From sequence record PP047755: a DNA stretch of 64,000 nt; one strand, 5' to 3'. The position numbers and the translations under genes were made by a program. The notes under the pieces were generated by a model, which was given only the letters and a program-made list of their open reading frames with translations, had not been told where the DNA came from and searched no databases. Shown here piece after piece: positions 5,586 through 51,955 of this stretch. The stretch is from Escherichia phage KEP1. Position 1 is the first letter of the stretch; every line of letters starts with the position of its first letter.

Positions 5586-6147
5586 TGGTGTGATAGATAT
5601 GGAAAAAGATAACTTAAAAGAAGTTGAAGGTAACTACCTAGTCCTTGACTGGAATGATATTCGTGGAGCACTTTACGAAGAAAGCCTTAATAGGTTAGAA
5701 CAAATTATCTTTGCAGTACGGGGTTACAGAGAGGTTCAAAATGGTAAAGAGCCACTTGAAGGAATCTTTGTAGAGAAGTCGTATCCGTTCTATGAAGACA
5801 CTTTGCAGAAAGTTAAGATGCACTTTAAACAGAAGAATCGTAAAGTGGTCACTATGGTATCTCTTGGTGGACAGAGTATGTCTGTGATGGAAGATATCAA
5901 CCCTAAGAGACCGAGTAAAGGTGTTTGTATAAAAATCACAGGTCATGAAGAGTATATCTCGGTGGATGACTTTAGCTTATTCTGTAATGGTTCTTGTGTC
6001 TTTAATGGTTTTCACTATGATATCCGAGTGTACCCAATCAAGGGAGATGATATCATGATGCAGGTATTCGATAATAACAACGGATTTACTCATTTTTATC
6101 AGACAACCAAGTCATCATTGAAAACAGTTCTGGAAACACTGATTTAA
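5554..6147 (+). CDS. hypothetical protein (197 aa; true start may be the internal ATG at 5599)
   Basis: ORF; 32-nt overlap with upstream gene suggests a later start. Confidence 0.6.
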   Translation: MQFQLTKFYDNGVIDMEKDNLKEVEGNYLVLDWNDIRGALYEESLNRLEQIIFAVRGYREVQNGKEPLEGIFVEKSYPFYEDTLQKVKMHFKQKNRKVVTMVSLGGQSMSVMEDINPKRPSKGVCIKITGHEEYISVDDFSLFCNGSCVFNGFHYDIRVYPIKGDDIMMQVFDNNNGFTHFYQTTKSSLKTVLETLI

Positions 6148-6158
6148 AATATCTTAAG

Positions 6159-6186
6159 AGCCTCCTTAATCGGGGGCTTTTTAATT
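6159..6186 (+). terminator. rho-independent terminator ending the plus-strand operon
   Basis: GAGCCTCC-TTAATC-GGGGGCTT hairpin followed by TTTTTAATTTTTAT. Confidence 0.7.
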
Positions 6187-6189
6187 TTT

Positions 6190-7730
6190 ATAAAATTTTA
6201 TCGGTTGTCCCAACCTCTGGGTCACCATCATATGTGAATAAAATATCTACCCTTCTTAACATCCTTCTTAATCTTACTCTCTATATATAGTTATATAGTA
6301 CTATATAGTATCTTAGTAACTATCTAGTGGTCTTAATAGCCCCTCTGTATAGCCCTTCTAAACACTCTTCTAACAAGCCTTCTTAACAACCTATACAATC
6401 ACCTTAACCATACCTTTACACCCTCTTAGAAGCTCCTATACACCTCTTAATCTCTAGGTTAGCTATGTTACCCTCTATAGGTGTTCACTAGGAAATACTA
6501 AGCCTCTATATAGACTGTTTTAACAAACTTAACAGGAATATCTTTACAGACCTTATCTCACAAGGTCTAACACGGTACTAACAAGGTATCTTATAAGCCT
6601 GTTTATGCCTGTATTTTTAAAAGACTGTCTAGGTAATTATTCAGAATTTTAAAATTTTTATAAAATAGGACTATCAAGTCATTTTTTAGGGTCTTTGAAG
6701 GAACTGAAAAATATCTGTCTAGGATGTATATCTGCTTGGTAGCCCTTAACAGCTCCCTTACCATCCCTTTGCAAAATTTTAAAATATCCTTAACAATCTC
6801 TTAACAGCTACTACATCCTCTTAACATCTCTTCAGAGGTCTTAACAGATTCTTAACAGAACTAACAAGGGTGTAACAGTTTCTTAACAGTTGATACATAG
6901 GCTTTACAGAGTCTTAACAGATGACTAACAAGAGCTAAGTAGTTAAATGTTAAGAGTTATTTTGTTAAGATAATTAACAAGTTCCTAACAAGTGTTTAAT
7001 CTTTTTAACAAGCTATTAACATGGTCACTATCTCTTTTCTTATCGTTCCCTCTCTTTCTTAGTGATTCTCTTAACATGCCTCTTAAAAGCTCTCTATAGC
7101 CCCTTATAAGCTCTTTTAAGCCTCTTCCTAGTAGTTACACCCCAACTATACAAACACCTCTTTATAGAGCTTTACAGGAGCTTTTAAGACTATGTCAAAG
7201 ACTCTTACAAGGCTTTTACGTGGTCTTAACAGAGATTTAACAAGGGGCTAACAAGCATAACTATGTAGGGATTGTTAAGAAATTGTTAAGAAAATGTTAA
7301 GGGGGCTAGCATTTACGTAACTTTATAGCCTCTTTTACGTAACTTCAAAGTAACTTAACAGCCCCTATAACATACTTTTTAGAGACTATCAAGGGCTATT
7401 GAGTTATTCACAAGATAGCTAACGAGATGATAAAGCTTACACCCTTATAAGATTCTTTTGAGGCTATAGGAAGCTTTATAAAGGGCTTTTTAGAGTGGGT
7501 TAATGCAATCCCTTAAGTTAGGTTGATAAGGCTGTTATAGAGCTTTATAGAGCGTTTAAATGTGCCATCCCCTTTCTGGGGTTATTGGCTTTTATTTAAG
7601 TTGATTTGATAAGGGGCTATAGAGTAAGCTATAGAGTTATTGCTTTTAAGGTACGAGATAGATTCTGTCGAATTAGTGGGATAGATTCTGGAAAGGGAAG
7701 GAAAGGGATTGTATAGAGATTTGATAAGAC
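6190..7730. repeat. 1.5 kb non-coding region dense in short dispersed repeats (CTTAACA / TGTTAAG, CTATAGAG, ATATAGT)
   Basis: No ORF of 60 aa or more on either strand; about 18 CTTAACA-like copies including 7 within 6790-6900 and an inverted cluster GTTAAGAAATTGTTAAGAAAATGTTAAGG at 7270-7300. Confidence 0.75.
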
Positions 7731-7732
7731 GT

Positions 7733-7758
7733 AAAAAAGCCCCTATGAGAAAGGGGCT
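7733..7758 (-). terminator. rho-independent terminator ending the minus-strand cassette array
   Basis: On minus strand AGCCCC-TTTCTCATA-GGGGCT followed by TTTTTT; a second hairpin GGGGCTAAATAGCCCC at 7771-7786. Confidence 0.7.
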
Positions 7759-7796
7759 GTAAAGGTATCTGGGGCTATTTAGCCCCGCTGCGTCGA

Positions 7797-8045
7797 TTAG
7801 TTGTACCCTTGTTTGCTGTAGTACAGGGAGACAATCAAATCACCCCAATAATGGTAATGATGTTCATCGTTTAACGCCTCTTTTACTGCATCTTTCCAGA
7901 AGTCATCAGTAGGGTTATAATCTGGGATAACTTGCTTGATAACTGTCTTCACTAATGAAAAGCATTCATCAGTTCCACCAATATCAAATTTAACGTCCAG
8001 AGTGTAGCAGCCATAAGCATTAACAGTAGCGCGGATAGTAGCCAT
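7797..8045 (-). CDS. hypothetical protein (82 aa), cassette gene
   Basis: ORF preceded by conserved GGAGATTCAAAA-ATG 5'UTR element. Confidence 0.65.
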   Translation of the reverse strand: MATIRATVNAYGCYTLDVKFDIGGTDECFSLVKTVIKQVIPDYNPTDDFWKDAVKEALNDEHHYHYWGDLIVSLYYSKQGYN

Positions 8046-8110
8046 TTTTGAATCTCCTAGTTTAAGGTATTTATCTAGTGGGAGGTTATTACCTCCCGTT
8101 GATTAGTAAT
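8046..8110 (-). promoter_or_regulatory. cassette element A1: hairpin GGGAGGT-AATA-ACCTCCC plus conserved 5'UTR and ribosome-binding site
   Basis: Minus strand reads ATCAACGG-hairpin-CACTAGATAAATACCTTAAACTAGGAGATTCAAAA-ATG; one of 13 related copies. Confidence 0.7.
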
Positions 8111-8136
8111 TTACTGCATGTTGGCGTAGGTTGCAA
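8108..8136 (-). promoter_or_regulatory. sigma70-like promoter TTGCAA-17-TAAATT for the 7797-8045 cassette gene
   Basis: -35 at 8131-8136, -10 at 8108-8113, 17-bp spacer; the -10 contains the stop codon of the upstream gene. Confidence 0.55.
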
Positions 8137-8374
8137 GTCTTTTTTCGTTGTATTTTGTCAGAATCTCACAAGATAATACATCGTACTTTGTAATAGCGTT
8201 GCCTTTGTCGAGGTCAAAGAATCCGAATGCTTTACCGTCTTTGAATCCGACAACTTCGTAAGATTCTTTAATGATTTCACCATTGAACAAATCACTTTCG
8301 ATACGGTGGAATAGCGCTACATCCTCTTTGTCGGTTGCAATTTGTAAAAGTGTGGTCAGTTCGACGTGTTCCAT
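8111..8374 (-). CDS. hypothetical protein (87 aa), cassette gene
   Basis: ORF preceded by conserved 5'UTR element. Confidence 0.65.
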   Translation of the reverse strand: MEHVELTTLLQIATDKEDVALFHRIESDLFNGEIIKESYEVVGFKDGKAFGFFDLDKGNAITKYDVLSCEILTKYNEKRLATYANMQ

Positions 8375-8435
8375 TTTGAATCTCCAGTTTAGGATTTTAT
8401 TTAGTGGGGGAGGTCATCCCCCGTTGATTGACAAT
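8375..8435 (-). promoter_or_regulatory. cassette element A2: hairpin GGGGGA..TCCCCC plus conserved 5'UTR and ribosome-binding site
   Basis: TTGAATCTCCAGTTTAGGATTTTATTTAGTGGGGGAGGTCATCCCCCGTTGATTG on plus strand. Confidence 0.7.
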
Positions 8436-8461
8436 TTACAGACTTTTGATTGTCTCGTCAA
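8433..8461 (-). promoter_or_regulatory. sigma70-like promoter TTGACG-17-TAAATT for the 8111-8374 cassette gene
   Basis: -35 at 8456-8461, -10 at 8433-8438; the -10 overlaps the stop codon of the upstream gene. Confidence 0.55.
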
Positions 8462-8966
8462 TATCTTTTTCAATTTCTCTTAAAGTTTTTTCTAAGTTCT
8501 TGATATTCAGCATTAACCCCTCTCCCAGTGTCTTAGCGTAACCATTTGGGCGATGGTCATAAAGCTCGATTTCTTCCACTTCGTAAAGGCTGACATTGAA
8601 GCCCCCTACCCCGTAGGCTGTGGATGAAGTGCCTTCCGGTGCTTTGTAGTATTTATTGAGATTCTTTAAAGAGCGCTCGTAAGCCATACGATAACCGTTT
8701 AACACTGTTTTGGTGCAATCACGTACACTTTCACACTGTGCCGCATACTTTTCTAAGAACAGCGGGAGGAGTTCCGCTACCGCTTGCATGAAGTGACGAA
8801 CAACGAAAGTAGACATATTACGGCGGTGAATGTAGAAAACACCCGTATCAGATTTAGTGATAGTTGCGAAATGTTCACCATTGCAACGGAATTCATAGGT
8901 ATCTTTTACAGGCTTGGACATTACACGATTTGAACGAATGTAATTGATTGCTTGAAACTTGTTCAT
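8436..8966 (-). CDS. hypothetical protein (176 aa), cassette gene
   Basis: ORF preceded by conserved 5'UTR element. Confidence 0.65.
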   Translation of the reverse strand: MNKFQAINYIRSNRVMSKPVKDTYEFRCNGEHFATITKSDTGVFYIHRRNMSTFVVRHFMQAVAELLPLFLEKYAAQCESVRDCTKTVLNGYRMAYERSLKNLNKYYKAPEGTSSTAYGVGGFNVSLYEVEEIELYDHRPNGYAKTLGEGLMLNIKNLEKTLREIEKDIDETIKSL

Positions 8967-9035
8967 TTTGAATCTCCAGTTTAGGATTTTATTTAGTGGG
9001 GGAGGTCATCCCCCGTTGATTAGTAATTTACTTGT
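8967..9035 (-). promoter_or_regulatory. cassette element A3
   Basis: Near-identical to A2; upstream TTGCAA-17-TAAATT promoter-like motif. Confidence 0.7.
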
Positions 9036-9182
9036 TTTAATTTGTCTTTGCAAGCAATTTTTTAAGTTTATCTATAAAGAATCTTTTAAGTGAATCCCTT
9101 TTAGATAAACCCCCTCGAACAAATGTACTATTGTCAAGGGGTATCGTCAAGTAATTTTTTAAAGTTTTTTATAAGTTATTGA

Positions 9183-9524
9183 TTAACTGATGAATATTTT
9201 TTCAGGTTTTACATAACTGATACGCTGGCTTTTTAGCAAGTCATCCCAGATTAGCGCGGCAATGTGAGAATAGCCGGATTCACGTAAAAGCTTCATTGTT
9301 TTACTTCTCGTTTCAAAACGGCTTGCGTAGTATTCACTGTTCAAGGTCGTTTTGTTCCCTTCGTTATCTGTATGGATGATTTGCATCACTTGAAAGGGGC
9401 TTACATCCTCGCCTTTGTTCCACTGCTCAAAGTATTTTAGGCACTGCATAGGTGACATCTTATCACTAACCTGAGTTGACCAAGATGAATTCTCTTTATC
9501 GGTAATTACAGTTACATAAGCCAT
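9183..9524 (-). CDS. hypothetical protein (113 aa), cassette gene
   Basis: ORF preceded by conserved 5'UTR element. Confidence 0.65.
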   Translation of the reverse strand: MAYVTVITDKENSSWSTQVSDKMSPMQCLKYFEQWNKGEDVSPFQVMQIIHTDNEGNKTTLNSEYYASRFETRSKTMKLLRESGYSHIAALIWDDLLKSQRISYVKPEKIFIS

Positions 9525-9613
9525 TTTGAATCTCCTAGTTTAAGGATTTTACTTAGTAGGGAGGTTGTTGCCTCCCCGTTGATTGACACTCTACAAGCTT
9601 TTATCAGGCTTGT
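9525..9613 (-). promoter_or_regulatory. cassette element A4
   Basis: TTGAATCTCCTAGTTTAAGG..GGGAGGTTGTTGCCTCCCCGTTGATTG on plus strand. Confidence 0.7.
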
Positions 9614-9847
9614 CTAGTCTTTTTCAATGATAATTTCATATTGACCATCAACACTATCAAAATAAATGCCGTCTTCATCTTCTGTCTTAAAGTAGCATTG
9701 TATGTCATCACTGGCGGGATAGTCTTGTCTTGCTATCTGACAAACTTGAATGGCATTTTCTTTACTTCCTGTGAACTCCTCAAGCCCTTTAAAATCGCAT
9801 GAATGGCCGTTACAAATGGAAAGGATGAGATAAATGGTTGTAAGCAT
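9614..9847 (-). CDS. hypothetical small protein with N-terminal hydrophobic/signal-like segment (77 aa)
   Basis: MLTTIYLILSICNGHSC N-terminus; lacks the conserved cassette 5'UTR. Confidence 0.55.
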   Translation of the reverse strand: MLTTIYLILSICNGHSCDFKGLEEFTGSKENAIQVCQIARQDYPASDDIQCYFKTEDEDGIYFDSVDGQYEIIIEKD

Positions 9848-9913
9848 GATTTAAGCCCTCTAAAAGCCCCTACAAGGGGCTGATTAGTGTTTATAAGGTG
9901 ATTGCATAGGTTT

Positions 9914-10456
9914 TTAGAAAAAGCTCTTTAAATCCTCTTCTGCAATGTTTCCTGTCAGTGTATCCATGATGTCACAAAAAACCTGAATACTGTCTGAATG
10001 TTGAACACTTTTAGCGAGAAGCTCCAGAGACTCATTAAGATAGTTTAAATTTGGGTTATCCAATGAAGGAAGACAAAAAGGTGAATACATAGCGTTAAAC
10101 TCTGTTGTATAGACCTTTTTAATCCAATTTACATCAAAGTACTCTGTAAAACTTGCTACACTCGACATATTATCACAAGAATAATCATCATTTAGCTCAT
10201 CCTCTGGAATATCTAGTTCTAAGATAACAATATTTTGGGTTTTCATCTGGAAAGCTGCGGTGATAGTGGCATTTCCTAGAGCTTGTTGGATACCTTCTGA
10301 TGCTATTTCTTCCTCATCGTCGCCATAGATTTTATTTTCTGGATACACGTAAAAATTGCCGTCCATATCCGAACAATTCCATGCGCCTGATGGTTTATCA
10401 CCGTTATTAATCAGGTTGATGAAGTTTTCTTGAGTAGTACCGTGAAAGCATTTCAT
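9914..10456 (-). CDS. hypothetical acidic protein (180 aa), cassette gene
   Basis: ORF preceded by type B cassette element; terminator-like hairpin AGCCCCT-ACA-AGGGGCT downstream at 9865-9881. Confidence 0.65.
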   Translation of the reverse strand: MKCFHGTTQENFINLINNGDKPSGAWNCSDMDGNFYVYPENKIYGDDEEEIASEGIQQALGNATITAAFQMKTQNIVILELDIPEDELNDDYSCDNMSSVASFTEYFDVNWIKKVYTTEFNAMYSPFCLPSLDNPNLNYLNESLELLAKSVQHSDSIQVFCDIMDTLTGNIAEEDLKSFF

Positions 10457-10548
10457 TTTTGAATCTCCAGTTTAGGATTTAGTGGTAAAGCTCTTTATCT
10501 GGGGCTTACTTTATCGAACTATAAGCCCCCTGTAAAGTACTTTATCAG
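10457..10548 (-). promoter_or_regulatory. cassette element B1: long hairpin GGGGCTTA..TAAGCCCC preceded by TTTACA, plus conserved 5'UTR and ribosome-binding site
   Basis: Minus strand TTTACA-GGGGGCTTATAGTTCGATAAAGTAAGCCCC-AGATAAAGAGCTTTACCACTAAATCCTAAACTGGAGATTCAAAA-ATG. Confidence 0.7.
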
Positions 10549-10746
10549 TTAATTTTTGACAACTTTTAAAACTGCAAGATAACCTAAGCAATAAGAATCA
10601 CCGAAGAGAGTTCTACCCATGAAAGAATCCTCTTTAATATCCTTTGCAGTAACAGTTTTCTCTACGCCGTGGGAAAGGACTACATCACCAACTTTGATGT
10701 CTTTGATGTGTGTTGTTTCAATGTTTAAGCCGTTAATAATAGCCAT
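10549..10746 (-). CDS. hypothetical protein (65 aa), cassette gene
   Basis: ORF preceded by conserved 5'UTR element. Confidence 0.6.
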   Translation of the reverse strand: MAIINGLNIETTHIKDIKVGDVVLSHGVEKTVTAKDIKEDSFMGRTLFGDSYCLGYLAVLKVVKN

Positions 10747-10850
10747 TTTTGAATCTCCTAGTTTAAGGACTTTACTTAGTGGGGAAGGTCATTCCCTCCC
10801 CCGTTGATGAGTAATTTACTTGTTTTAAAAACCAAAATCAAGAGGAATTT
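10747..10850 (-). promoter_or_regulatory. cassette element A5 with TTGATT-17-TAAATT promoter-like motif
   Basis: Conserved 5'UTR, GGGGAAGG..CCCTCCCC imperfect inverted repeat. Confidence 0.65.
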
Positions 10851-11255
10851 TTATAGTTCTGCGTAAATTGCGTCACAGATATCACGGAAATCATGATTTG
10901 TTAAATTACGTTGCAACCATGTTGCAAAAAAGTCAGCGATTGCAAAATTTGCGTCATACTCGACAGATAGCCACACTTTCACGGCAAAACGAAACATCTT
11001 TAAATCAAGCTCTTTATTCATTATCTTTGATTTGCCTAACATGTCAGCCATTTCATATTGTGCACCGTCTAGCGTGATACCTGCTGCAACGTCAGCCAAT
11101 GAGTTTTTTACACTTTCAACGTCTAAGATAACACTTTGAATCTTCCCGATAATATTGTGCAATGTCTCATCAGGTGCTGATGATGTAATAACATTAATCC
11201 GGTTAACGGTTAAACGTGCTTTTAAGATTGATAACTCACGGTTATTAATAGTCAT
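10851..11255 (-). CDS. hypothetical protein (134 aa), cassette gene
   Basis: ORF preceded by type B element. Confidence 0.65.
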   Translation of the reverse strand: MTINNRELSILKARLTVNRINVITSSAPDETLHNIIGKIQSVILDVESVKNSLADVAAGITLDGAQYEMADMLGKSKIMNKELDLKMFRFAVKVWLSVEYDANFAIADFFATWLQRNLTNHDFRDICDAIYAEL

Positions 11256-11340
11256 TTTAGAATCTCCAATTTAGGATTTAGTGGTAAAGCTCTTTATCTG
11301 GGGCTTACTTTATCGAACTATAAGCCCCTTGTAAAGTACT
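11256..11340 (-). promoter_or_regulatory. cassette element B2
   Basis: Near-identical to B1. Confidence 0.7.
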
Positions 11341-11613
11341 TTATACTAAATGCAGCTTTTTACCTTTTACTATGATGTAACTTGATGCGCTATTGCCGCA
11401 CACATCTTGATAAATTCTGCGCAAACGGCCTTCGTAGTGGACTTTCCAGCTAGTTGGAATCTTTTTCCCGTATCCGGTAGCAGTTTTTTGGAGTCCTGCT
11501 ACTTGCCAATCTAAGATATGTTGCTCAGCTTGTAAATCCTCAAAGTGCATCACACCATCAACATAGTGACGTAGAGTGACATTTAAAGTACGACCGTTGT
11601 TAGTAGTATACAT
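11341..11613 (-). CDS. hypothetical protein (90 aa), cassette gene
   Basis: ORF preceded by truncated A-type element at 11614-11640. Confidence 0.65.
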   Translation of the reverse strand: MYTTNNGRTLNVTLRHYVDGVMHFEDLQAEQHILDWQVAGLQKTATGYGKKIPTSWKVHYEGRLRRIYQDVCGNSASSYIIVKGKKLHLV

Positions 11614-11640
11614 TTTTGAATCTCCTAGTTTAAGGCTTAT
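11614..11640 (-). promoter_or_regulatory. truncated cassette element (ribosome-binding site/5'UTR part only)
   Basis: TTTTTGAATCTCCTAGTTTAAGG without the hairpin. Confidence 0.55.
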
Positions 11641-11796
11641 TTTGACAGTTCACTAATTAAGACATCAAAGATTATATCATTATCTGCTACAGTTGCAACA
11701 CCAGTGATATAATCAATTTCTAAGATAACAACAACTTTCGTACATAAACCGTCATCTATATCATTCCAGACAACTTTATCACCTGCACAAAACATT
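11641..11796 (-). pseudogene. possible gene remnant: full cassette 5'UTR and ATG at 11794 but only a 12-codon frame
   Basis: ATG preceded by conserved GGAGACTCAAAAAA context; frame MFCAGDKVVWNV then stop. Confidence 0.35.
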
Positions 11797-11885
11797 TTTT
11801 GAGTCTCCTAGTTTAAGGACTTTATTTAGTAGGGAGGTTATTGCCTCCCCGTTGATGTGTAATTTAATCTATCTAAAAATCAGTG
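11797..11885 (-). promoter_or_regulatory. cassette element A6
   Basis: TTTTTTGAGTCTCCTAGTTTAAGG..GGGAGGTTATTGCCTCCCCGTTGATG. Confidence 0.65.
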
Positions 11886-12218
11886 TCAACAGTTTTGTTT
11901 TCGTTTGCTCAATTCTTGAACAATTACAGCGTAGTAGTCTTTTAAGTCACTGATATTTAAAGCATTTATCAGAGAATTATAATCATTGACTAACTGGAAA
12001 TCATCCTTGAAGATGTCACTTATCTGATAGGTTTTCGCTTTGAATCTGAAGCTCATCTCTAGCCGCTTTATTTGCTCATCACTGAGACGCCCTAGAAAGC
12101 TCTCTACAAGGTTATTGCTAACCTGCTGTGTGATTGCCTTATTTGCTAGATTATAGGCTTTATATGCCTTATATAGCGCGAAAATGGCAATAATTGCAGT
12201 GATACCAGTCATTAACAT
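11886..12218 (-). CDS. hypothetical protein with N-terminal transmembrane helix (110 aa)
   Basis: MLMTGITAIIAIFALYKAY hydrophobic N-terminus. Confidence 0.6.
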   Translation of the reverse strand: MLMTGITAIIAIFALYKAYKAYNLANKAITQQVSNNLVESFLGRLSDEQIKRLEMSFRFKAKTYQISDIFKDDFQLVNDYNSLINALNISDLKDYYAVIVQELSKRKQNC

Positions 12219-12508
12219 GGTGTTTCCTCTTTACGTGATACTTTGCCATTTACAGTTATCTCATAAGATTCTAATAAATCGCTTTTAGACTTTACAGGGC
12301 TTTTAAAAGTATCATCACAAACATTGACTTGCAATACAGGTTTTTTATACTCCCTGCAACTATTCCATAAGCAAATCACTACACGACGGCCTTTGATTTT
12401 TCCGTGTAACCATTCCATAACATCATGACTATTCCTTGATGTTTCAATAAAATCAATTTTGTTGAGTAACTTGCTTAGATTTTCACGGATTTTATTTGAT
12501 AATTTCAT
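12212..12508 (-). CDS. hypothetical protein (98 aa), cassette gene
   Basis: ORF preceded by type B element. Confidence 0.6.
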   Translation of the reverse strand: MKLSNKIRENLSKLLNKIDFIETSRNSHDVMEWLHGKIKGRRVVICLWNSCREYKKPVLQVNVCDDTFKSPVKSKSDLLESYEITVNGKVSRKEETPC

Positions 12509-12596
12509 TTTTGAATCTCCAGTTTAGGATTTAGTGGTAAAGCTCTTTATCTGGGGCTATCTTAACAGCTTGATAACCCCATGTAAAGAAATCTAT
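12509..12596 (-). promoter_or_regulatory. cassette element B3 (stem changed on both strands: GGGGTTATC..GATAGCCCC)
   Basis: Same flanks as B1 but stem sequence co-varies, loop differs. Confidence 0.7.
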
Positions 12597-13109
12597 TTAG
12601 TCCTTAAAGATATTCATCACTGAATCTTTTAATGCTTCCAAGCGTTCTAATACTTCAGATTCTGCGTCTGAATTGTTCACTTCCTCTTTTAGTCTGCTAT
12701 CTAAATCATCGCCGTCACTGTAGCACCAATCGAAAGCATAACCAATATAAAAACTGTCTAAAACCGTGCTACCGTTTGCATCTACAACTTTCGCGGCAAT
12801 GTTGTACTCTGAAGCCTCTAAATCTCTTTCTAATTCTTTCTGTAAACTGATGTAAGCCTCTTTTGATGGATTTTCCCGGCCTTGTTTTGCATAGTCACTC
12901 GAAAGCTGTTTAAGGCTGTAATGTAAAGGGATTGCATATTTAAATTCATTATGCTGGCAGTTAGGATTTTTAACAGTCACACCGCCTTGATGGTCATCTG
13001 TAAATTCCCAATTATCAAGATTATGGCTTGCTTCAAAGCAATTAACAGCTTCATAGATAATGGTGAATTTTTCTTTTACAACTTCAAAGGTAGCGTCTAC
13101 AGTTTTCAT
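12597..13109 (-). CDS. hypothetical acidic protein (170 aa), cassette gene
   Basis: ORF preceded by type B element. Confidence 0.65.
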   Translation of the reverse strand: MKTVDATFEVVKEKFTIIYEAVNCFEASHNLDNWEFTDDHQGGVTVKNPNCQHNEFKYAIPLHYSLKQLSSDYAKQGRENPSKEAYISLQKELERDLEASEYNIAAKVVDANGSTVLDSFYIGYAFDWCYSDGDDLDSRLKEEVNNSDAESEVLERLEALKDSVMNIFKD

Positions 13110-13197
13110 TTTTGAATCTCCAGTTTAGGATTTAGTGGTAAAGCTCTTTATCTGGGGCTTAAGATACCAACTTTTAAGCCCCCTGTAAAGTACTTTA
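13110..13197 (-). promoter_or_regulatory. cassette element B4 (stem GGGGCTTAA..TTAAGCCCC, different loop)
   Basis: Conserved flanks, variable loop. Confidence 0.7.
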
Positions 13198-13503
13198 TCA
13201 GTTAATTTCCAGTTTTGCATAGCCTCTCATTGTACGAATGGGGGATGTTAAGGCTACGCGTCTAATATATGCCTTTTTCGTGTATACATTTGTCTTCCCG
13301 ATAGTGTTTACACATGTAAAAAGGTTTATTGGTGAATTTTTTAACTTCAACTGTTTATCAGTCTTCACGCCCCATCTTACAGCAGATTGTTTTCCGTTGT
13401 CAACCACTTTCCCACCTAACTTTTTCGCCATAATGCGAGCGTCATCACGAGTTTTTGCAGGAATTACAACGTTTTTGATAGTAGCCATTTTTAAGTTCTC
13501 CAA
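13198..13503 (-). CDS. hypothetical basic protein (101 aa), cassette gene
   Basis: ORF preceded by type B element. Confidence 0.65.
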   Translation of the reverse strand: MENLKMATIKNVVIPAKTRDDARIMAKKLGGKVVDNGKQSAVRWGVKTDKQLKLKNSPINLFTCVNTIGKTNVYTKKAYIRRVALTSPIRTMRGYAKLEIN

Positions 13504-13576
13504 TTTAGGATTTAGTGGTAAAGCTCTTTATCTGGGGCTTACTTTATCGAACTATAAGCCCCTTGTAAAGTACTTT
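13504..13576 (-). promoter_or_regulatory. cassette element B5
   Basis: Near-identical to B1/B2. Confidence 0.7.
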
Positions 13577-13957
13577 TTATTTAATTTTGAAGATTGTCAC
13601 GTAGCCATCACTGCCGATGATTTGTGATACCCCAGCTTTTTCTACTTGATAGCCCATATTTTCCAGATGATAGATAGCATCGTCATAACCATATGCACCG
13701 CCCTGATAACGTCGCTTATCACATCTTACTAAAACCTTTCCACGTCCTGCCAGTGCATTTAGTACAGCTTTTTCACTTGATAGCATACCATCTATCATGG
13801 TTGCCGTGTAATGGTTGATTTTATTCCCGTTGATATCATACTTGAAATTGAACGAGTGAACAACGATAACGTTACCTTTAAAATTCTCATCAAGTGACTT
13901 CTCCAGTGCGTTGCGAAAGTTGTCTTTATTGATGAATTTAGGTGCACGGTATGCCAT
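13577..13957 (-). CDS. hypothetical protein (126 aa), first cassette gene
   Basis: ORF preceded by A-type element and a strong promoter. Confidence 0.65.
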   Translation of the reverse strand: MAYRAPKFINKDNFRNALEKSLDENFKGNVIVVHSFNFKYDINGNKINHYTATMIDGMLSSEKAVLNALAGRGKVLVRCDKRRYQGGAYGYDDAIYHLENMGYQVEKAGVSQIIGSDGYVTIFKIK

Positions 13958-14023
13958 TTTAGAATCTCCTAGTTTAAGGTTAGTTATTTAGTGGGGAAGG
14001 TTATTCCCTCTCCGTTGATGCAA
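13958..14023 (-). promoter_or_regulatory. cassette element A7 (hairpin plus conserved 5'UTR)
   Basis: TTTTAGAATCTCCTAGTTTAAGG..GGGGAAGGTTATTCCCTCTCCGTTGATG. Confidence 0.65.
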
Positions 14024-14052
14024 ATATTAGATAACCATAGCCAAAGAGTCAA
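14024..14052 (-). promoter_or_regulatory. near-consensus sigma70 promoter TTGACT-17-TAATAT heading the cassette array
   Basis: -35 at 14047-14052 and -10 at 14024-14029 (minus strand), 17-bp spacer, followed by the conserved hairpin/5'UTR. Confidence 0.6.
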
Positions 14053-14219
14053 GAAAAATTTTAAAAATATTTTTGAAAAAAAAAAAACTGTAATGGAACG
14101 GGCGCACGCGACTACCACAAAACAGAACTACAATCAAGAATTATTTTTCAATCCGCTACAAATTTTTCTCTTGACTTTTGGGGAGAGGGGGAGTAAGAGG
14201 GAAAGAGGGGCTTGGCTGG

Positions 14220-14410
14220 CTATCTATAAAAACCTACCTGCACAATTCTAAAATGATTTTTCTTGCCCGACCTGAGCGGGGTCTGCACGTTTTGAAAATG
14301 AAAAAGCTCTTTGGAGATTACCTGCACAATTTGAAAATGAATTTTCTCTTTGGAGTTCAAAATTCTCTCTACAGATTTCTCTACAGAACTCTACCTGCAC
14401 AATCCTAAAA
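14220..14410. repeat. three direct repeats of TACCTGCACAAT-NN-TAAAATGA, plus one degenerate copy, in a 530-bp intergenic region
   Basis: Copies at about 14226, 14318 and 14388; related GCACGTTTTGAAAATGAAAAAGC at about 14285. Confidence 0.6.
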
Positions 14411-14486
14411 TGAAAAAGCCCTCCTTACCTGAAAAATTTAACAGATAAGAAAGGCTTAGCCTATTGTGAATATTCTACAGAGTTTC

Positions 14487-15272
14487 TTAGTTCTTTGCGT
14501 CTAAGAAGGTAGCTTCTTGTGATGAGAAAATTTCCTCGATATCCTCATCAGTTCTTGCATAGATATAAGTATCTGCATCACTGCCAAATGTTACTGCAAT
14601 CCTGTGATTGCTCTTCGACAGGTGGGTAACTAGAGCGTTACTTAGAGACATCTTTTCAACCGGAGGGTTACTTTGATGTATCTTACCTTTTCTTCGTCTG
14701 AAGAGGGTAACTGTATTGTCTGTGAACGTTACTACACCTGCAAAGTATTCCGGTTCACAGTAGTTCTTCCAACCTGAGAGTAACTTGTGGTACATCTCTC
14801 CTTCGTAGACATACAGATAGACATCTGCACTCTTCATCACCTGATTAATGATAACGGTGACGGCTTGAGGGTCTAGTCCACCGATACCTGCACCAATCAT
14901 AGGTAACCCAACTTTCTTCAACTGATTAACTTCACAGTACCTGTTAAGCTGTTTCAAAGATGATTCTAAAGCACTGTATCGGGCATCTTTGCCAGTCTTA
15001 AGCTGAGTGTAAAGGTTAGCTATACGGCCTTGTTTTAAACGTGCTACAGAGAAATTACCTAGTAAGTTCTCACAGGGCTTGTGGCCTATGCCACCTGCAT
15101 ACAGATAAACTTCTGTATCAGTCTCATATGCTTTTGGGTAAAGTTTAGAAATCTTGTCAGCGATACCTGCACCCATTAAATTCATACAGTTGCAACCGTG
15201 ACCAATGACGTCAAACTTACCTTTATCAAATGCGGCAAAGATATCACCATTGATGATTTTTACAATACCCAT
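14487..15272 (-). CDS. macro domain protein, TARG1/OARD1-like (putative ADP-ribosyl hydrolase) with C-terminal domain of unknown function
   Basis: GDIFAAFDKGKFDVIGHGCNCMNLMGAGIA and LPMIGAGIGGLD match the TARG1 signature (GDLF..HCISEDCRMGAGIA, MPRIGCGLD). Confidence 0.7.
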   Translation of the reverse strand: MGIVKIINGDIFAAFDKGKFDVIGHGCNCMNLMGAGIADKISKLYPKAYETDTEVYLYAGGIGHKPCENLLGNFSVARLKQGRIANLYTQLKTGKDARYSALESSLKQLNRYCEVNQLKKVGLPMIGAGIGGLDPQAVTVIINQVMKSADVYLYVYEGEMYHKLLSGWKNYCEPEYFAGVVTFTDNTVTLFRRRKGKIHQSNPPVEKMSLSNALVTHLSKSNHRIAVTFGSDADTYIYARTDEDIEEIFSSQEATFLDAKN

Positions 15273-15473
15273 TTAACATCTCTCCCAAGATTCTTTATCT
15301 TCTGAAGGTTTTACACGTTGTCCTTCATGGTCTACCCAGATACATCCACAACCTTCACAGATTACTGGCATTGCATAGCCAGCTTTAAAGTCATCTTCAG
15401 TGATAAGACCTTTTAAGTCACCTGTATCACGTCCGAACATTTCGATAGCACAATCTTTGCAGAAGTCAGCCAT
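15273..15473 (-). CDS. small Cys-rich protein (66 aa from the MADFCKDC start)
   Basis: CxxC...CEGCGC motifs; ATG overlaps upstream stop (ATGGCTGA). Confidence 0.5.
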   Translation of the reverse strand: MADFCKDCAIEMFGRDTGDLKGLITEDDFKAGYAMPVICEGCGCIWVDHEGQRVKPSEDKESWERC

Positions 15474-15699
15474 GAATAATTGCCTCTTGAATGATGATAC
15501 CTTTACCACAACGATTTTTAAAGTCTTCCAATGGTTCAGAGAAGAAGTCACGGAAATGGTTACTGCACTCACGTTTCATCACCTTCTTGTAAGTTAACAC
15601 ATCTTCTCCTGTAAACGGGACGACTTCATGTCTCCCTTTGAATACTGCTGAACTTACAATCTTACGTGTCTTTTTATCTCTGGCTAGTATTACTTTCAT
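15466..15699 (-). CDS. hypothetical protein (77 aa)
   Basis: ORF in operon. Confidence 0.55.
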   Translation of the reverse strand: MKVILARDKKTRKIVSSAVFKGRHEVVPFTGEDVLTYKKVMKRECSNHFRDFFSEPLEDFKNRCGKGIIIQEAIIHG

Positions 15700-16039
15700 A
15701 GTTTACCTTCTCAGTTAGCTCATATAAATCAACATGCTCAATACTATCAATGTTGATACCAATCTTTTTGAAGCGTTCTATCACTTCGTTGTCAGTCATC
15801 CATATCAGACACCAATGATTGTGGATGGATTCTTCAAGAAGGTCAACACAATCTTTAAAAGTTTTTGTATCACTTCTTGTTCCGACTACTGCGATTGTCC
15901 CATACAACCACTTACCATTACCATAAGATACTTGTGCTACGCCAACTTCTTTATCTTTCTCGTAGTAAACGGCTACAAAGTCTCTTCCATTAATCTGCAT
16001 TTGTAAGTTCCTCTGTTGGTAATTCACCATTTTCAGCAA
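15674..16039 (-). CDS. hypothetical protein (121 aa)
   Basis: ORF in operon. Confidence 0.55.
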   Translation of the reverse strand: MLKMVNYQQRNLQMQINGRDFVAVYYEKDKEVGVAQVSYGNGKWLYGTIAVVGTRSDTKTFKDCVDLLEESIHNHWCLIWMTDNEVIERFKKIGINIDSIEHVDLYELTEKVNYESNTSQR

Positions 16040-47384: not shown

Positions 47385-47918
47385 ATGGATTTAATTTTAC
47401 AAAAACGTTTAAAGGAGCTGCTGCACTATGACCCCGAAACAGGGGTCTTTACTTGGCTTCGTAGAGAAGGTAAATCAAGAGCTGTTAGTGTTTTTAACAG
47501 TAATTATGCAGGAAAGGTGGCAGGTAATATCCAGACTGATTCAAGTGGTCATAAACAGATTAGTATCTATTTTGACAAGAAAGCACATAAAGCACACAGA
47601 CTCGCATGGCTTTACGTGTATGGCAAGATGCCAAAAGGTATCATTGACCATATCAACGGAGACTCACTTGACAACAGGATTGTAAACTTAAGGGAAGCAG
47701 ATGACTTTCAAAGTGCTTGGAATAAAGGTAAGCTAGTCACCAATAAATCTGGGTACAAGGGTGTAAGTCTTAAGAAGAAGTCTGGTAAGTGGGTCGCACA
47801 GATAAGTTATAGAGGTAAGAAGATGTTTTTAGGTTATCATGACACACCTGAAGAAGCCCATAAAGCTTACTGTAAAGCTGCTGTGAAACTCCACGGAGAG
47901 TTTGCAAAACTAAGTTGA
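47385..47918 (+). CDS. HNH homing endonuclease-like protein with AP2-type domain, directly downstream of the intron-containing polymerase
   Basis: LHYDPETGVFTWL, HRLAWLYVYG, IDHINGDSLDNR, GYKGVSLKKKSGKWVAQ; paralogue of 37021-37521. Confidence 0.7.
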   Translation: MDLILQKRLKELLHYDPETGVFTWLRREGKSRAVSVFNSNYAGKVAGNIQTDSSGHKQISIYFDKKAHKAHRLAWLYVYGKMPKGIIDHINGDSLDNRIVNLREADDFQSAWNKGKLVTNKSGYKGVSLKKKSGKWVAQISYRGKKMFLGYHDTPEEAHKAYCKAAVKLHGEFAKLS

Positions 47919-51450: not shown

Positions 51451-51663
51451 ATGGCTCTTAAAAAGTTACATCCCAGAAGCGGTTATGGTAAGATAATTGA
51501 TGATACAGACGGCTTTACAGTCTTTACAGTTATCTGTCAAGATGATTCACAGATTGAAAAGATTCTTGACGATTATCTTAACGATGAACGTGAAAAGGTT
51601 AGGGCTACAAACATAGATTCATTGATTGACACTTCACGCAAACGGAAGAAGAAAGATGAATGA
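51451..51663 (+). CDS. hypothetical protein (70 aa)
   Basis: ORF. Confidence 0.55.
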   Translation: MALKKLHPRSGYGKIIDDTDGFTVFTVICQDDSQIEKILDDYLNDEREKVRATNIDSLIDTSRKRKKKDE

Positions 51664-51955
51664 GGTTTTTGACCCTTATGCTCCACAAGATGATTGGGAG
51701 GCTGACAGAGAGGCTGAAATGGAGAGTTATATTTGTCCAATGGATGTAGACGAAATGAGAGACTTCGTTGCACATCGTTTTAAGAGAGAGATTAAGTCCA
51801 GAGGTCTTTCTCAAGAGCAAGTTGCTAAAATTTGTGGTATCTCTCAGGCTCGTGTATCCAACATAATCCACCTCACTGGTAATGTCTCGCTTGAGTATAT
51901 GTTGGAAGTATGCGAAAAATTCGGTGTTAATTTTAATTTAAGGCTGGCAGATTAA
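51656..51955 (+). CDS. helix-turn-helix DNA-binding protein (XRE-like)
   Basis: LSQEQVAKICGISQARVSNI helix-turn-helix; start ATG 51656 overlaps upstream stop. Confidence 0.6.
   Translation: MNEVFDPYAPQDDWEADREAEMESYICPMDVDEMRDFVAHRFKREIKSRGLSQEQVAKICGISQARVSNIIHLTGNVSLEYMLEVCEKFGVNFNLRLAD

Follow-up and report, generated by a model that had tools for sequence, protein, structure and literature searches.

The window analysed here, 64,000 nucleotides of Escherichia phage KEP1 (PP047755), comes from a Felix O1-like phage (Felixounavirus). Positions 7797-14060 of its minus strand held 15 small open reading frames (ORFs; 52-180 aa), none with a known function, punctuated by 13 copies of a repeated cassette: seven of type A, five of type B and one ribosome-binding (Shine-Dalgarno, SD) module alone (Table 1). 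A sequence-only reading of the same DNA had located these elements and counted all 13 of them correctly. It had also recognized the small minus-strand gene array, although not as the 14 ORFs of 65-180 aa that it listed, having overlooked the 52-aa w7; w3 truly starts at ATG 13488. Its claim that every ORF is preceded by a cassette held for 13 of the 15, the exceptions being w6, which overlaps w5 by 7 nt at a cassette-free boundary, and w12, which follows a terminator-like hairpin.

Table 1. Positions in the window of the ORFs, cassettes and terminators of the array and its borders.
Feature	Position	Strand	Details
Intrinsic terminator	14413..14455	-	ends the unit of the upstream Macro-domain gene; Felix O1 equivalent: t13
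Type A, array head, upstream of w2	13955..14052	-	-35 TTGACT 14052-14047; -10 TAATAT 14029-14024; ATCAAC 14019-14014; hairpin 14013-13993; SD 13969-13958; ATG 13957
ORF w2	13577..13957	-	126 aa; phrog_4495
Type B, upstream of w3	13486..13578	-	-35 TTTACA 13569-13564; -10 TAAAGT 13546-13541 inside hairpin 13562-13534; 3' flank AGATAAAGAGCTTTA 13533-13519; SD 13501-13489; ATG 13488
ORF w3	13198..13488	-	96 aa
Type B, upstream of w4	13107..13198	-	-35 13189-13184; -10 TATCTT 13166-13161 inside hairpin 13182-13154; 3' flank 13153-13139; SD 13121-13110
ORF w4	12597..13109	-	170 aa
Type B, upstream of w5	12506..12596	-	-35 12587-12582; -10 TAAGAT 12564-12559; hairpin 12580-12553; 3' flank 12552-12538; SD 12520-12509
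ORF w5	12212-12508	-	98 aa
ORF w6	11886-12218	-	110 aa
Type A, upstream of w7	11793..11889	-	-35 TTGACA 11889-11884; -10 TAAATT 11866-11861; hairpin 11850-11831; SD 11808-11796
ORF w7	11637..11795	-	52 aa; no family
SD module alone, upstream of w8	11611..11639	-	TAAGCCTTAAACTAGGAGATTCAAAAATG
ORF w8	11341..11613	-	90 aa
Type B, upstream of w9	11253..11344	-	-35 11335-11330; -10 TAAAGT 11312-11307; hairpin 11328-11300; 3' flank 11299-11285; SD 11267-11256
ORF w9	10851..11255	-	134 aa
Type A, upstream of w10	10744..10841	-	-35 TTGATT 10841-10836; -10 TAAATT 10818-10813; hairpin 10802-10781; SD 10758-10747
ORF w10	10549..10746	-	65 aa
Type B, upstream of w11	10454..10545	-	-35 10536-10531; -10 TAAAGT 10513-10508; hairpin 10529-10501; 3' flank 10500-10486; SD 10468-10457
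ORF w11	9914..10456	-	180 aa
Terminator-like hairpin + T run	9862..9882	-	between w11 and w12; no cassette at boundary
ORF w12	9614..9847	-	77 aa
Type A, upstream of w13	9522..9616	-	-35 TAGACA 9616-9611; -10 TAGAGT 9593-9588; hairpin 9577-9558; SD 9535-9525
ORF w13	9183..9524	-	113 aa
Long intergenic region upstream of w14	8964..9182	-	extra promoter-like TTGACG-17-TACATT (9150-9122), then type A cassette
Type A, upstream of w14		-	-35 TTGCAA 9053-9048; -10 TAAATT 9030-9025; hairpin 9014-8998; SD 8977-8967
ORF w14	8436..8966	-	176 aa
Type A, upstream of w15	8372..8461	-	-35 TTGACG 8461-8456; -10 TAAATT 8438-8433; hairpin 8422-8406; SD 8385-8375
ORF w15	8111..8374	-	87 aa
Type A, upstream of w16	8043..8136	-	-35 TTGCAA 8136-8131; -10 TAAATT 8113-8108; hairpin 8097-8080; SD 8057-8046
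ORF w16	7797..8045	-	82 aa
Remnant type-B-like hairpin	7786-7771	-	GGGGCTAAATAGCCCC+AGATA; array end
Intrinsic terminator	7758-7733	-	AGCCCCTTTCTCATAGGGGC+T6; array end; equivalent to Felix O1 t23

The motif GGAGATTCWAAA occurred 12 times in the window, always within the array (1.07 expected), and ATCAACGG nine times (0.86 expected); seven of the latter were cassette copies, and the other two lay at 13827-13834, inside w2, and at 47652. Covariance models, one per cassette type, matched the window only within 8043-14031, and neither found a match in the remainder of the closest relative's genome. A terminator scan recovered only the true terminators, at 7758-7738 and 9881-9865. Since the terminator at 14413..14455 closes the unit upstream, the array would constitute a separate transcription unit. 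Homologues of w11 were found only in named Ounavirinae phages or on contigs the size of an Ounavirinae genome. This was the sole ORF modelled; its moderate-confidence structure, whose best fold matches were ADP-ribosyltransferases, gives weak to moderate support for an ADP-ribosyltransferase-like fold, which fits a host-takeover or anti-defence role without proving it.

Each cassette appears to run from the stop codon of the preceding gene as far as the start codon (ATG) of the small ORF that follows. It would supply a host sigma-70 promoter with its A/T-rich tract, together with a G/C stem-loop and a standard leader whose Shine-Dalgarno sequence is strong. Over the 20 nt preceding the -35, A/T averaged 77.5% vs. 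62.9% for the array, a value reached by 0 of 2000 random sets, and the head cassette had 95% A/T over 20 nt upstream. The promoter reported at the head of the array (14052-14024) was confirmed as TTGACT-17-TAATAT and is itself a type A copy. For type A in general, TTGACN-17-TAAATT had been proposed. The spacing stood, but the -35 was variable (TTGACA/G/T, TTGCAA, TTGATT and TAGACA) and a TAAATT -10 was present in five of seven copies. Across 12 genomes, TTGnnn or TAGACA stood exactly 17 nt from TAnnnT in each of the 58 unique type A copies. The -10 was also said to hold the upstream stop codon, which was true of two of the seven copies (8113-8108, the w15 stop; 8438-8433, the w14 stop) and false for the rest; two copies had the stop codon within the -35, namely the TAG of w12 (TAGACA, 9616) and the TGA of w6 (TTGACA, 11889). 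The w15 cassette has its -35 within the w14 coding sequence and shares an identical hairpin with the w14 cassette. RNA folding placed the start of the type A hairpin about 3 nt past the predicted 5' end and left the SD open. At this position, the hairpin would cap its own mRNA, where it may shield the message from 5'-end-dependent decay and dampen upstream read-through.

Type B had been described as TTTACA followed by a longer hairpin, which was correct but incomplete, as every copy also contained a TAnnnT hexamer within the hairpin, exactly 17 nt downstream of TTTACA. This TTTACA-17-TAnnnT arrangement was found in 49 of 49 unique copies from the 12 genomes, with nine different -10 hexamers in which only T1, A2 and T6 were invariant. 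Type B is thus predicted to be a complete sigma-70-type promoter with its -10 within the hairpin. Because the hairpin spans the spacer and the -10, it would be missing from the RNA that the cassette itself initiates, whose start is expected near AGAUAAAG. It would occur only in read-through RNA of the preceding gene, where it would top a long two-part hairpin and could attenuate transcription, stabilise the RNA 3' end or serve as a processing site. Folding of this RNA from stop codon to ATG (four window copies) gave -24 to -26 kcal/mol, with z of -2.8 to -4.5. The full element had a lower helix of 11 positions (5 + 4-6 bp, interrupted by one mismatch), a 3x3 internal loop and a 9-bp upper stem with a loop of ~11 nt; the w5-slot cassette carried a third stem allele, GGGGTTATC/GATAGCCCC.

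Compensatory changes on both strands of the stems, as suggested previously for type B, were confirmed by alignment, strongly for type B and more weakly for type A. The fraction of cells paired, counted in alignments fitted to the models and so biased toward structure, was 99.0% for the type B upper stem, 98.6% for its lower helix (46 distinct copies; one covarying pair, G-C 37, U-A 4) and 95.7% for the type A stem. Both sides had changed in five of the nine type B upper-stem pairs (GGTG/CACC in phiEa104 and REP10), yielding 36 compensatory cells vs. 8.4 ± 2.1 in shuffles (0/500 as good) and a covariation score of 0.331 vs. ≤0.057 in slid registers. The type A stem had 10 compensatory cells vs. 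2.4 ± 1.2 (0/500), a modest signal given that a register shifted by 1 still paired 90.6% of cells. G.U was the most frequent state at one type A pair, and of 33 type A hairpins, 24 were more stable on the sense strand. Comparison of the copies thus shows selection on the stems.

Such hairpins might be ordinary Rho-independent terminators, in which case the array would be a series of monocistronic units, each with a terminator of its own. The stems lie between genes, are rich in G/C and have 6-9 bp, and the stem-loops of promoter-early stem-loop (PeSL) cassettes, defined in PMC2839356, were reported in that work to terminate transcription in reporter assays. We nevertheless consider this highly improbable. 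No cassette hairpin is followed by the T run of a canonical intrinsic terminator (ACTAAATAAA follows type A and AGATAAAG type B); the terminator scan returned only the two sites given above, and the type A hairpin lies downstream of the promoter that it would need to insulate.

Type B could instead be mainly an RNase III-type processing site, as between T7 early genes, with secondary or coincidental promoter-like hexamers. The host enzyme would cut polycistronic RNA in the internal loop, leaving a protective 3' hairpin on the upstream message and starting the downstream message at roughly the AGAUAAAG position that de novo initiation would use. All four folded copies formed the two-part hairpin, which we take to resemble T7 R1.1-type sites in overall shape, and the lower helix is nearly always paired, with one covarying pair. 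U.G wobble was commonest at another lower-helix pair, which implies pairing on the sense strand only. The 5' flank of the w5 slot is not self-palindromic and is still complementary to its own 3' flank, and, unlike the SD module, the 3' flank AGATAAAGAGCTTTA shows no variation all the way from Felixounavirus to Kolesnikvirus. However, six of nine lower-helix pairs never vary, five of which are the -35 region CTTTA and are accounted for by promoter function, and without a promoter it is difficult to see why TAnnnT should stay exactly 17 nt away in all nine variants. We regard processing as the main function as possible but lean against it; it is compatible with the PeSL explanation rather than exclusive of it.

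The palindromes flanking the type B hairpin were also considered as operators of a phage repressor that would silence type B promoters once the early phase is over. ATAAAG-TA-CTTTA overlaps the -35 and ATAAAG-AG-CTTTA spans roughly +2 to +15; operators classically sit over the -35 and the start site. A 5+2+5 palindrome is unable to form an RNA hairpin alone, and the window encodes a candidate repressor, a Cro/C1-type HTH_3 protein at 51626-51955 (PF01381, E = 6e-10). Exact copies of ATAAAGAGCTTTA numbered five in the window, all in type B cassettes, and allowing ≤2 mismatches gave 24 matches vs. 4.2 expected. Still, the w5-slot upstream copy, ATAGATTTCTTTA, is non-palindromic yet complementary to the downstream flank, which a stem fits better than two operators, and type A cassettes carry no such palindrome, making operators quite unlikely.

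Related genomes were compared for the plasticity of the array. It was covered ≥80% in one place in 9 of 256 related records, vs. 255/262 and 253/257 (~98%) for core-region controls of 6.7 and 6.2 kb, and by this measure the array is hyperplastic. Gene order was not shared: gene maps showed ORFs gained, lost or replaced at many slots, with breakpoints in cassettes, so that this comparison did not refute the earlier interpretation. Specifically, w7 was missing in five of ten Felixounavirus genomes compared; w15 was missing in NBEco004, Felix O1, SP3 and CECAV041 and replaced by another ORF in REP10; an unrelated 70-aa ORF replaced w4 in phages DE17 and HY02; and w16 was kept in all genomes compared. 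The same cassette architecture was present in Mooglevirus and Kolesnikvirus. BLAST homology breakpoints fell ≤10 nt from a cassette in 34 of 35 cases, and 19 of the 35 were strictly intergenic vs. 20% expected (p = 8e-6). As nearly every gene boundary in the array is a cassette, position alone does not separate cassette-driven from selection-filtered breakpoints, and selection removing gene-disrupting indels could also produce them.

Individual events were more specific. Two SD modules, 183 nt apart, flank the w7 ORF, whose loss in HY02 matches the ORF boundaries, with homology ending at 11635 and 11796; SD modules also bound the replacement of w4 by x7. Promoter types and SD alleles were seen in all four possible pairings, and private hairpin alleles were common to different slots within one genome in REP10, CECAV041, SP3 and WIN/DE17. 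Hairpins were identical between paralogous slots of one genome in 9.5% (A) and 22.7% (B) of cases and between orthologous slots in 6.2% and 23.9%, both ~2x the backgrounds of 4.0% and 10.7%. By sequence comparison, the chimeric cassettes and within-genome private alleles indicate recombination between cassettes. Conversely, the cassettes could be conserved early promoters or attenuators left by old tandem gene-plus-promoter duplications, with no active role in recombination and with variable gene content due to random indels surviving only between genes. Cassette type is indeed tied to the downstream ORF family (w3, w4, w5, w9 and w11 always type B across genomes; w7/w8, w10 and w13-w16 always type A), as vertical promoter-plus-ORF inheritance would yield, and selection against disruptive indels would alone place breakpoints at gene boundaries. 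This account is unlikely, given that direct repeats of cassette modules flank indels that remove whole units such as w7, that genome-private alleles recur at ≥2 non-orthologous slots, that paralogous identity is as frequent as orthologous, and that the four module combinations exist.

We therefore favor recombining cassettes. Modules of 60-100 nt recurring every few hundred bases would offer portable homology to phage and host recombination machinery, by which ORFs and cassettes could be deleted, inserted, swapped or gene-converted. Such exchange would account for differing gene content among otherwise near-identical phages. Promoter activity would presumably be early; crude RT-PCR in Felix O1 placed homologues of w4, w9, w13 and w14 at a 5-min maximum and those of w5, w8 and w16 at 25 min (PMC3185647), with no relation between timing and cassette type. 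The literature searched yielded no mapped transcript ends (5' or 3') for these phages, nor any reporter assays or recombination intermediates.

Taken together, the array is probably a hyperplastic early region of self-contained, PeSL-kind expression cassettes that recombine as portable homology. The likeness to T4-type PeSL cassettes proposed earlier held on every feature testable by sequence: a sigma-70-type -35/-10 with a fixed 17-nt spacing in all copies, an A/T-rich tract upstream of the -35, G-run/C-run stem-loops with compensatory changes, a 5' boundary at the upstream stop codon, a 3' boundary formed by SD and ATG, and association with ORFans. Most often, T4 PeSL cassettes have the -10 inside the hairpin, as in type B. 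PeSL-like mobile cassettes would be new for Ounavirinae, where earlier papers gave them only as direct repeats, and this layout of promoter, hairpin and ribosome site was previously known only from T4-type phages.

The array (Table) encodes 15 ORFs of 52–180 aa, w2–w16 in transcription order, and 13 of these are preceded by a conserved element ending in CTAAAYT(A)GGAGATTCWAAA-ATG. All 12 copies of GGAGATTCWAAA in the 64 kb lie in the array (1.07 expected), where GGAGATTCWAAA-ATG, at the cassette 3' end, provides the following gene with its SD and start codon. The motif ATCAACGG was found nine times (0.86 expected). The 13 copies counted in the sequence-only reading were resolved into seven type A cassettes (promoter first, hairpin after the predicted start), five type B cassettes (hairpin spanning the spacer and −10), and one copy of the SD module alone, the standard leader and ribosome-binding part ending at ATG. 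That reading described the array correctly but missed one ORF, and the stop codon it placed in the type A −10 hexamer was found there in only two of seven copies. The cassette-free ORFs were w6, which overlaps w5, and w12, behind a terminator-like hairpin. An intrinsic terminator forms the 3' border, and a further terminator with ~360 nt of non-coding DNA sets the array apart from the upstream operon. Covariance models of both types matched inside the array only among all positions of the window, and had no match in the rest of the DE17 genome (~28 kb).

Megablast of 7600–14300 against 50,697 phage records matched 256, nearly all Felixounavirus, whose hosts were Escherichia, Salmonella, Shigella, and Citrobacter. 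The top matches were HMD-P10 (88.9% over 99%) and DE17 (96.9% over the first 74%). Gene order around the array agreed with published Felix O1-like maps: rIIA, rIIB, pseT, and a 261-aa Macro-domain gene lie upstream on the same strand, and Felix O1 ORFs 15–23 are the counterpart of the array. None of the 15 ORFs had a Pfam match; PHROGs placed 14 of them in families without assigned function and w7 in none. PDB-sequence searches (phmmer and profile) with w11, w4, and w14 gave no significant match, and a BFVD fold search was uninformative. A tRNA scan of the window found none, and an Rfam 15 scan of 6000–16000 (E ≤ 1) returned a single spurious match, RF02621, at 25.8 bits versus a gathering score of 114.

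Several features adjoin the array. The Macro domain (ADP-ribose binding or hydrolysis; PF01661, E = 1e-7) belongs to the gene next upstream, annotated as a phosphatase in relatives; it lies ~4 kb upstream of w11, which has a possible ADP-ribosyltransferase fold, a notable pairing. Just ahead of the array-ending terminator is a type B hairpin remnant, also kept in Citrobacter phage Moogle; it is possibly a scar left by a cassette since lost, or a component of a double terminator. Beyond the array end, a 1.65-kb stretch in which no ORF is longer than 53 aa separates it from a converging plus-strand unit. This stretch holds 19 of the 46 exact CTTAACA copies of the window, often 11 or 31 nt apart, as well as inverted copies, and looks like replication-origin iterons or a packaging-related site. 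At the other end, four copies of TCATTTTNNNAWYGTGCAG (0.27 expected) occupy the non-coding DNA that runs from the upstream terminator to the head promoter. Three of them have a CTCCAAAGAG- or AAGGAGGG-like block ahead of them, and a polypyrimidine run comes next. This repeat family also occurs in Moogle and in Erwinia phage phiEa104, and is possibly a regulator-binding region ahead of the early array.

Coordinates of the array and of features in and around it (window positions unless a locus of another phage is named)
Feature	Position	Strand	Remark
Array, ORFs w2–w16	7797–14060	minus	
Range of covariance-model matches, both types	8043–14031		
Intrinsic terminator, 3' border of array	7758–7733		
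Terminator upstream of array	14455–14413		
Hairpin ahead of w12	9882–9862		terminator-like
Sites reported by terminator scan	7758–7738; 9881–9865	array strand	only two reported
Copy of SD module alone	11611–11639		
ORF w7	11637–11795		
Stretch missing from HY02	11636–11795		
Type A −10-to-start stretch (example)	8107–8102		ACTAAT
Type B −10-to-start stretch (example)	10507–10501		AAGCCCC
Intergenic region upstream of w14	8967–9182	minus	216 nt
Same region in Moogle	L010 9517–9714		
Extra promoter-like site ahead of w14 cassette	9150–9122		TTGACG-17-TACATT
Type B hairpin remnant	7771–7786	minus	GGGGCTAAATAGCCCC+AGATA, then CTTTACA
Same remnant in Moogle	L010 after 10878		
CTTAACA-rich stretch	6148–7796		
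Terminator of converging unit	6156–6181	plus-strand unit	
Inverted CTTAACA copies	7273–7301; 6948–6969		
Region with four TCATTTTNNNAWYGTGCAG copies	14238–14413	minus	
TCATTTTNNNAWYGTGCAG copy lacking the preceding block	14256–14238		
TCATTTTNNNAWYGTGCAG family in Moogle	L010 5112–5639		
TCATTTTNNNAWYGTGCAG family in phiEa104	L011 1696–2154		
Polypyrimidine run	14210–14180		
Macro-domain gene	14487–15272	minus	261 aa
Cro/C1-type HTH protein	51626–51955	plus	PF01381, E = 6e-10
Third cassette variant in phiEa104	L011 3794–3934, 6281–6576, 6685–6760		

From 5' to 3', type A cassettes consist of an A/T-rich tract, the −35 hexamer, 17 nt, the −10 hexamer, 4 nt, ATCAAC, a hairpin, ACTAARTAAA, and the SD module. 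The −35 hexamers were TTGACA/G/T, TTGCAA, TTGATT, and TAGACA, and the −10 was TAAATT in five of seven copies and otherwise TAGAGT or TAATAT. In every one of the 58 unique copies, drawn from 12 genomes, the best −35 stood at exactly 17 nt and the −10 read TAnnnT; a consensus promoter scan recovered four of the seven copies in the array, the head promoter included. With a start ~7 nt past the −10, the predicted transcript begins (A)ACGG. Just 3' of this start is the hairpin, a G-run/C-run stem of 6–8 bp directly followed by ACTAAATAAA, and in the predicted fold it sits ~3 nt from the 5' end and leaves the SD open. Between the −10 and the predicted start, type A is rich in A/T and type B in G/C, so the two types may be kinetically distinct early promoter classes; Felix O1 RT-PCR timing did not separate them. 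The intergenic region upstream of w14 is unusually long and is conserved in Moogle. Ahead of the regular type A cassette it carries an extra promoter-like site within a CCCC...GGGGG inverted repeat, and it could represent a small RNA gene or a second promoter-in-hairpin variant.

Type B cassettes run from a stop codon through ATAAAG-TA-C, TTTACA, 1 nt, a stem-loop, AGATAAAGAGCTTTA, and CCACTAAATCC to the SD module, and the hairpin has a 9-bp GGGG...CCCC stem with a 10–13-nt loop. The sequence-only reading had seen TTTACA followed by a hairpin, which held, but had not recognized a complete promoter. The consensus scan returned TTTACA-17-TAAAGT, TATCTT, or TAAGAT in five of five copies, and among 49 unique copies nine −10 forms occurred, all of them TAnnnT with a 17-nt spacer. 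In cassette alignment A1, the T, A, and T that define TAnnnT were exactly the invariant columns on the loop side. The −10 lies partly in the loop and partly in the 3' arm, and the hairpin therefore spans the promoter, which is the commonest arrangement described for the promoter-early stem-loop (PeSL) cassettes of T4-type phages (PMC2839356). Transcription is predicted to start at the A of AGATAAAG, directly after the hairpin; thus the cassette's own transcript would lack the hairpin and is predicted to be unstructured.

Type B sequence was present in 287 phage records, Mooglevirus phages of Citrobacter and Kolesnikvirus phages of Erwinia among them. PhiEa104 retains the promoter geometry, the GATAAAGAGCTTT flank, and a stem with compensatory changes, but has a different SD module. 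This phage also carries a third cassette variant, made up of TTGCAA or TTTACA, a GGGGTTA...TAACCCC hairpin across the spacer and a GACTAT −10, and then GTCGAAAC; two other copies have the ATCAAC block 3' of the hairpin, not 5'. The cassette family thus diversifies from genus to genus.

Substitution patterns bore out the earlier suggestion that the type B stem is kept by changes on both strands, and gave weaker support for the type A stem. For type B, the window and 11 loci supplied 53 copies, 46 of them distinct. With pair counts from alignments fitted to models, 99.0% of cells in the upper stem were paired, both sides had changed in five of nine pairs, and 36 compensatory cells were counted versus 8.4 ± 2.1 in shuffles (0/500). 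The covariation score was 0.331, and at most 0.057 in registers slid by 1–3 columns. Pair 5 occurred as C-G, U.G, and U-A, pairs 7 and 8 flipped between A-U and U-A, and pair 3 was U-A in phiEa104 and REP10. The MAFFT alignment A1 gaps the stem of one type B allele, and pair counts were taken from stem-anchored counts and from the model-fitted alignments A3 and A6. In 62 type A copies (57 distinct), 95.7% of cells were paired and 10 compensatory cells were found versus 2.4 ± 1.2 (0/500). The type A model search used a cut-off of E ≤ 1e-8, as two type B copies intrude at 1e-6 and distort the alignment. In the register shifted by −1, 90.6% of type A cells were still paired, as expected from the poly-G/poly-C arms. 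Support for selection on the type A stem is real, if weaker than that for type B.

The stems also carried information on strand. In one type A pair, G.U was the commonest state (35/57), and U.G wobbles were present in type B stems too. These wobbles pair on the sense strand only and so implicate RNA or the non-template strand. The sense strand was the more stable in 24 of 33 type A hairpins; type B stems showed no difference between sense and antisense stability (7/14), so wobble pairs are the sole basis for strand specificity in type B. A reading of the cassette hairpins as intrinsic terminators was rejected, since no U run follows them; ACTAAATAAA (type A) or AGATAAAG (type B) is found instead, and the terminator scan of the array strand reported only the two sites listed in the Table.

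The type B hairpin is extended by its flanks, ATAAAG-TA-CTTTA, which overlaps the −35, and ATAAAG-AG-CTTTA. As two copies of one short palindrome, they are also complementary to each other. In a read-through RNA, the predicted fold places the upper stem and its loop above a 3x3 internal loop and a lower helix (−24 to −26 kcal/mol, z −2.8 to −4.5). In the lower helix 98.6% of cells were paired, six of nine pairs were invariant, of which five are the −35 region, and one of nine covaried (G-C 37, U-A 4). The palindromes could alternatively be two separate operators. In the w5-slot allele (the cassette ahead of w5), however, the 5' flank is no longer palindromic and yet still pairs with the 3' flank, which favors a stem and leaves the two-operator reading with a low probability. 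A small Cro/C1-type HTH protein was the sole obvious transcription-regulator candidate seen in the window, and it might bind the palindromic flanks.

The extended hairpin could also be an RNase III site, as a rival to a promoter function or in addition to it. The early RNase III sites of phage T7 are intergenic hairpins of about two helical turns with an internal loop, among small early genes that the host RNA polymerase transcribes, and are not known to contain promoters. The read-through type B RNA is intergenic as well, and its predicted shape, about two helical turns with an internal loop, fits the ~20 bp of interrupted double-stranded RNA of T7-type sites. It differs in that the type B sequence contains a predicted promoter and that its lower helix covaries minimally, in one of nine pairs only. 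We consider doubtful a broader model in which one ~60-nt type B sequence acts as a sigma-70 promoter as DNA and as an RNase III-type hairpin as read-through RNA, with initiation and processing yielding the identical leader AGAUAAAG...SD. In combination with the leader/SD module, which recombines on its own, such a sequence would make up a recombinase-free, integron-like system shared by Felixounavirus, Mooglevirus, and Kolesnikvirus, evolved independently of T4 PeSLs and supplying the Felix O1 early program.

Gene content of the array was variable between relatives. The array (region HYPERPLASTIC?) was covered to at least 80% in one place in only 9 of 256 records, while core regions of similar length were covered in 255 of 262 (6.7 kb) and 253 of 257 (6.2 kb). 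The gene maps of 10 Felixounavirus genomes differed: w4 was swapped for an unrelated 70-aa ORF (x7) in DE17 and HY02, w15 was missing in four genomes and replaced in REP10, w7 was missing in five, four had an extra ORF at the array head, and Felix O1 was without seven of the array ORFs. Gain or loss bounded by cassettes, a check set out earlier, was observed: 34 of 35 BLAST homology ends inside the array fell within 10 nt of intergenic cassette sequence; the single exception was the w5/w6 junction. Strictly intergenic ends numbered 19 of 35 versus 20% expected (p = 8e-6), a uniform null that is generous, since indels within genes are also removed by selection. The w4 replacement and the gain or loss of w7 and w15 all occurred at cassette modules. 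A position of the array at a genome end, as in first-step-transfer regions, was rejected, since it lies ~16–22 kb from the left end of UAB_Phi87, a phage with experimentally determined ends.

There is also evidence for exchange that is independent of breakpoint positions. Promoter type and SD allele occurred in all four combinations (45, 14, 32, and 13 copies), and hairpin alleles private to one genome sat in at least two different slots of that genome. REP10 carried GGGGTTTA..TAAACCCC in slots w5 and w11, CECAV041 carried ..CTTACAG.. in w9 and w11, and SP3 had one allele in four slots; WIN and DE17 carried GGGGGATGACCTCCCCC in w14 and w15. Such chimeric cassettes, and private alleles common within a genome, are an indirect signature suggesting recombination between elements. 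At the bounds of the w4-to-x7 replacement are SD modules, w7 lies between two SD modules 183 nt apart, and the stretch missing from HY02 is approximately w7 itself. Exchange appears to proceed via general homologous recombination between 25–100-nt repeats. Cassette type otherwise stays with its downstream ORF, and the mobile unit therefore appears to be the cassette plus its ORF.

Felix O1-like phages are widely used in typing, biocontrol, and therapy for Salmonella and E. coli. The Felix O1 paper listed 57-bp and 39-bp direct repeats, corresponding to type B and to the type A promoter, respectively, without calling them promoters, and stated that temporal regulation was unexplained (PMC3185647); the sites are labelled DR_n in the wV8 GenBank record. 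Early regulation was still described as an unanswered question for VpaE1 (PMC4690856). Crude RT-PCR in Felix O1 placed homologues of w4, w9, w13, and w14 at a 5-min maximum and homologues of w5, w8, and w16 at 25 min (PMC3185647). Our literature search found no link of PeSLs to Felix O1-like phages and no transcriptomics for them. Twelve predicted host-type promoters in one array offer a testable model for early transcription here, and at least 256 sequenced relatives are available to study accessory-gene expression and shuffling. Cassettes mark the sites of variable genes, which are the most likely candidates for host-takeover or anti-defense functions, so mapping them aids therapeutic phage screening and effector mining, e.g., of w11. 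The compact promoter, 5' hairpin, and SD units are also ready-made parts for phage engineering.

Parallels to known systems were considered. The E. coli ompA leader has a 5'-terminal stem-loop that stabilizes the mRNA; type A resembles it in a hairpin within ~3 nt of the predicted 5' end and an unstructured SD downstream. Like integron gene cassettes, with which Arbiol et al. compared PeSLs (2010, PMC2839356), the units are small, mostly single-ORF, bounded by repeated hairpin-forming sequences, and gained, lost, and reordered in one array. An integron depends on one Pc, in contrast to the promoter supplied here with each cassette, and the repeats contain promoters, which attC sites are not known to do. 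No integrase or attC/attI was evident, and the published Felix O1-like annotations consulted list no integrase.

The closest parallel was to the PeSL cassettes of RB49/phi1, T4/PST, and KVP40/nt-1 (Arbiol et al. 2010, PMC2839356; Comeau et al. 2014, PMC4122927). All PeSL features open to sequence comparison were found: an A/T-rich tract, sigma-70-like −35 and −10 hexamers, a G-run/C-run stem-loop, an SD at the 3' end, concentration in one hyperplastic region of small ORFans, and indels and replacements between close relatives bounded by the elements. The 20 nt upstream of the −35 were 77.5% A/T versus 62.9% for the array, a value reached by 0 of 2000 random sets. In type B, the stem-loop spans the spacer and the −10, in line with PeSL stem-loops, which most often lie between the −35 and −10 or overlap the −10, other positions also occurring. 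A stop codon lies at the 5' edge of the cassette or inside its promoter in ten cassettes, and the head and w14 copies begin far downstream of the preceding stop. The PeSL-like interpretation of the array is thus supported, although the present cassettes are known from sequence, and for PeSLs experiments have demonstrated active promoters, attenuation or termination of upstream transcription by the stem-loop in reporter assays, and circular DNAs (mini-circles) arising by recombination between elements. KEP1 belongs to the Ounavirinae, a lineage other than that of T4, with genomes of ~87 kb and no known T4-like transcription factors, and sequence similarity to T4 cassettes is not expected. Promoter-hairpin cassettes would then be a recurrent solution for accessory-gene expression and shuffling in large virulent phages, rather than a T4-type peculiarity. 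Unlike PeSLs, all copies here are in one 6-kb array rather than several hyperplastic regions, and the type A hairpin is 3' of the predicted start site. The array consists of PeSL-like cassettes in a phage subfamily where none had been recognized, with features of its own: two fixed, highly conserved variants in place of a loose motif family, a standardized leader/SD module exchanged separately from the promoter module, and a type B hairpin extended by conserved complementary flanks.
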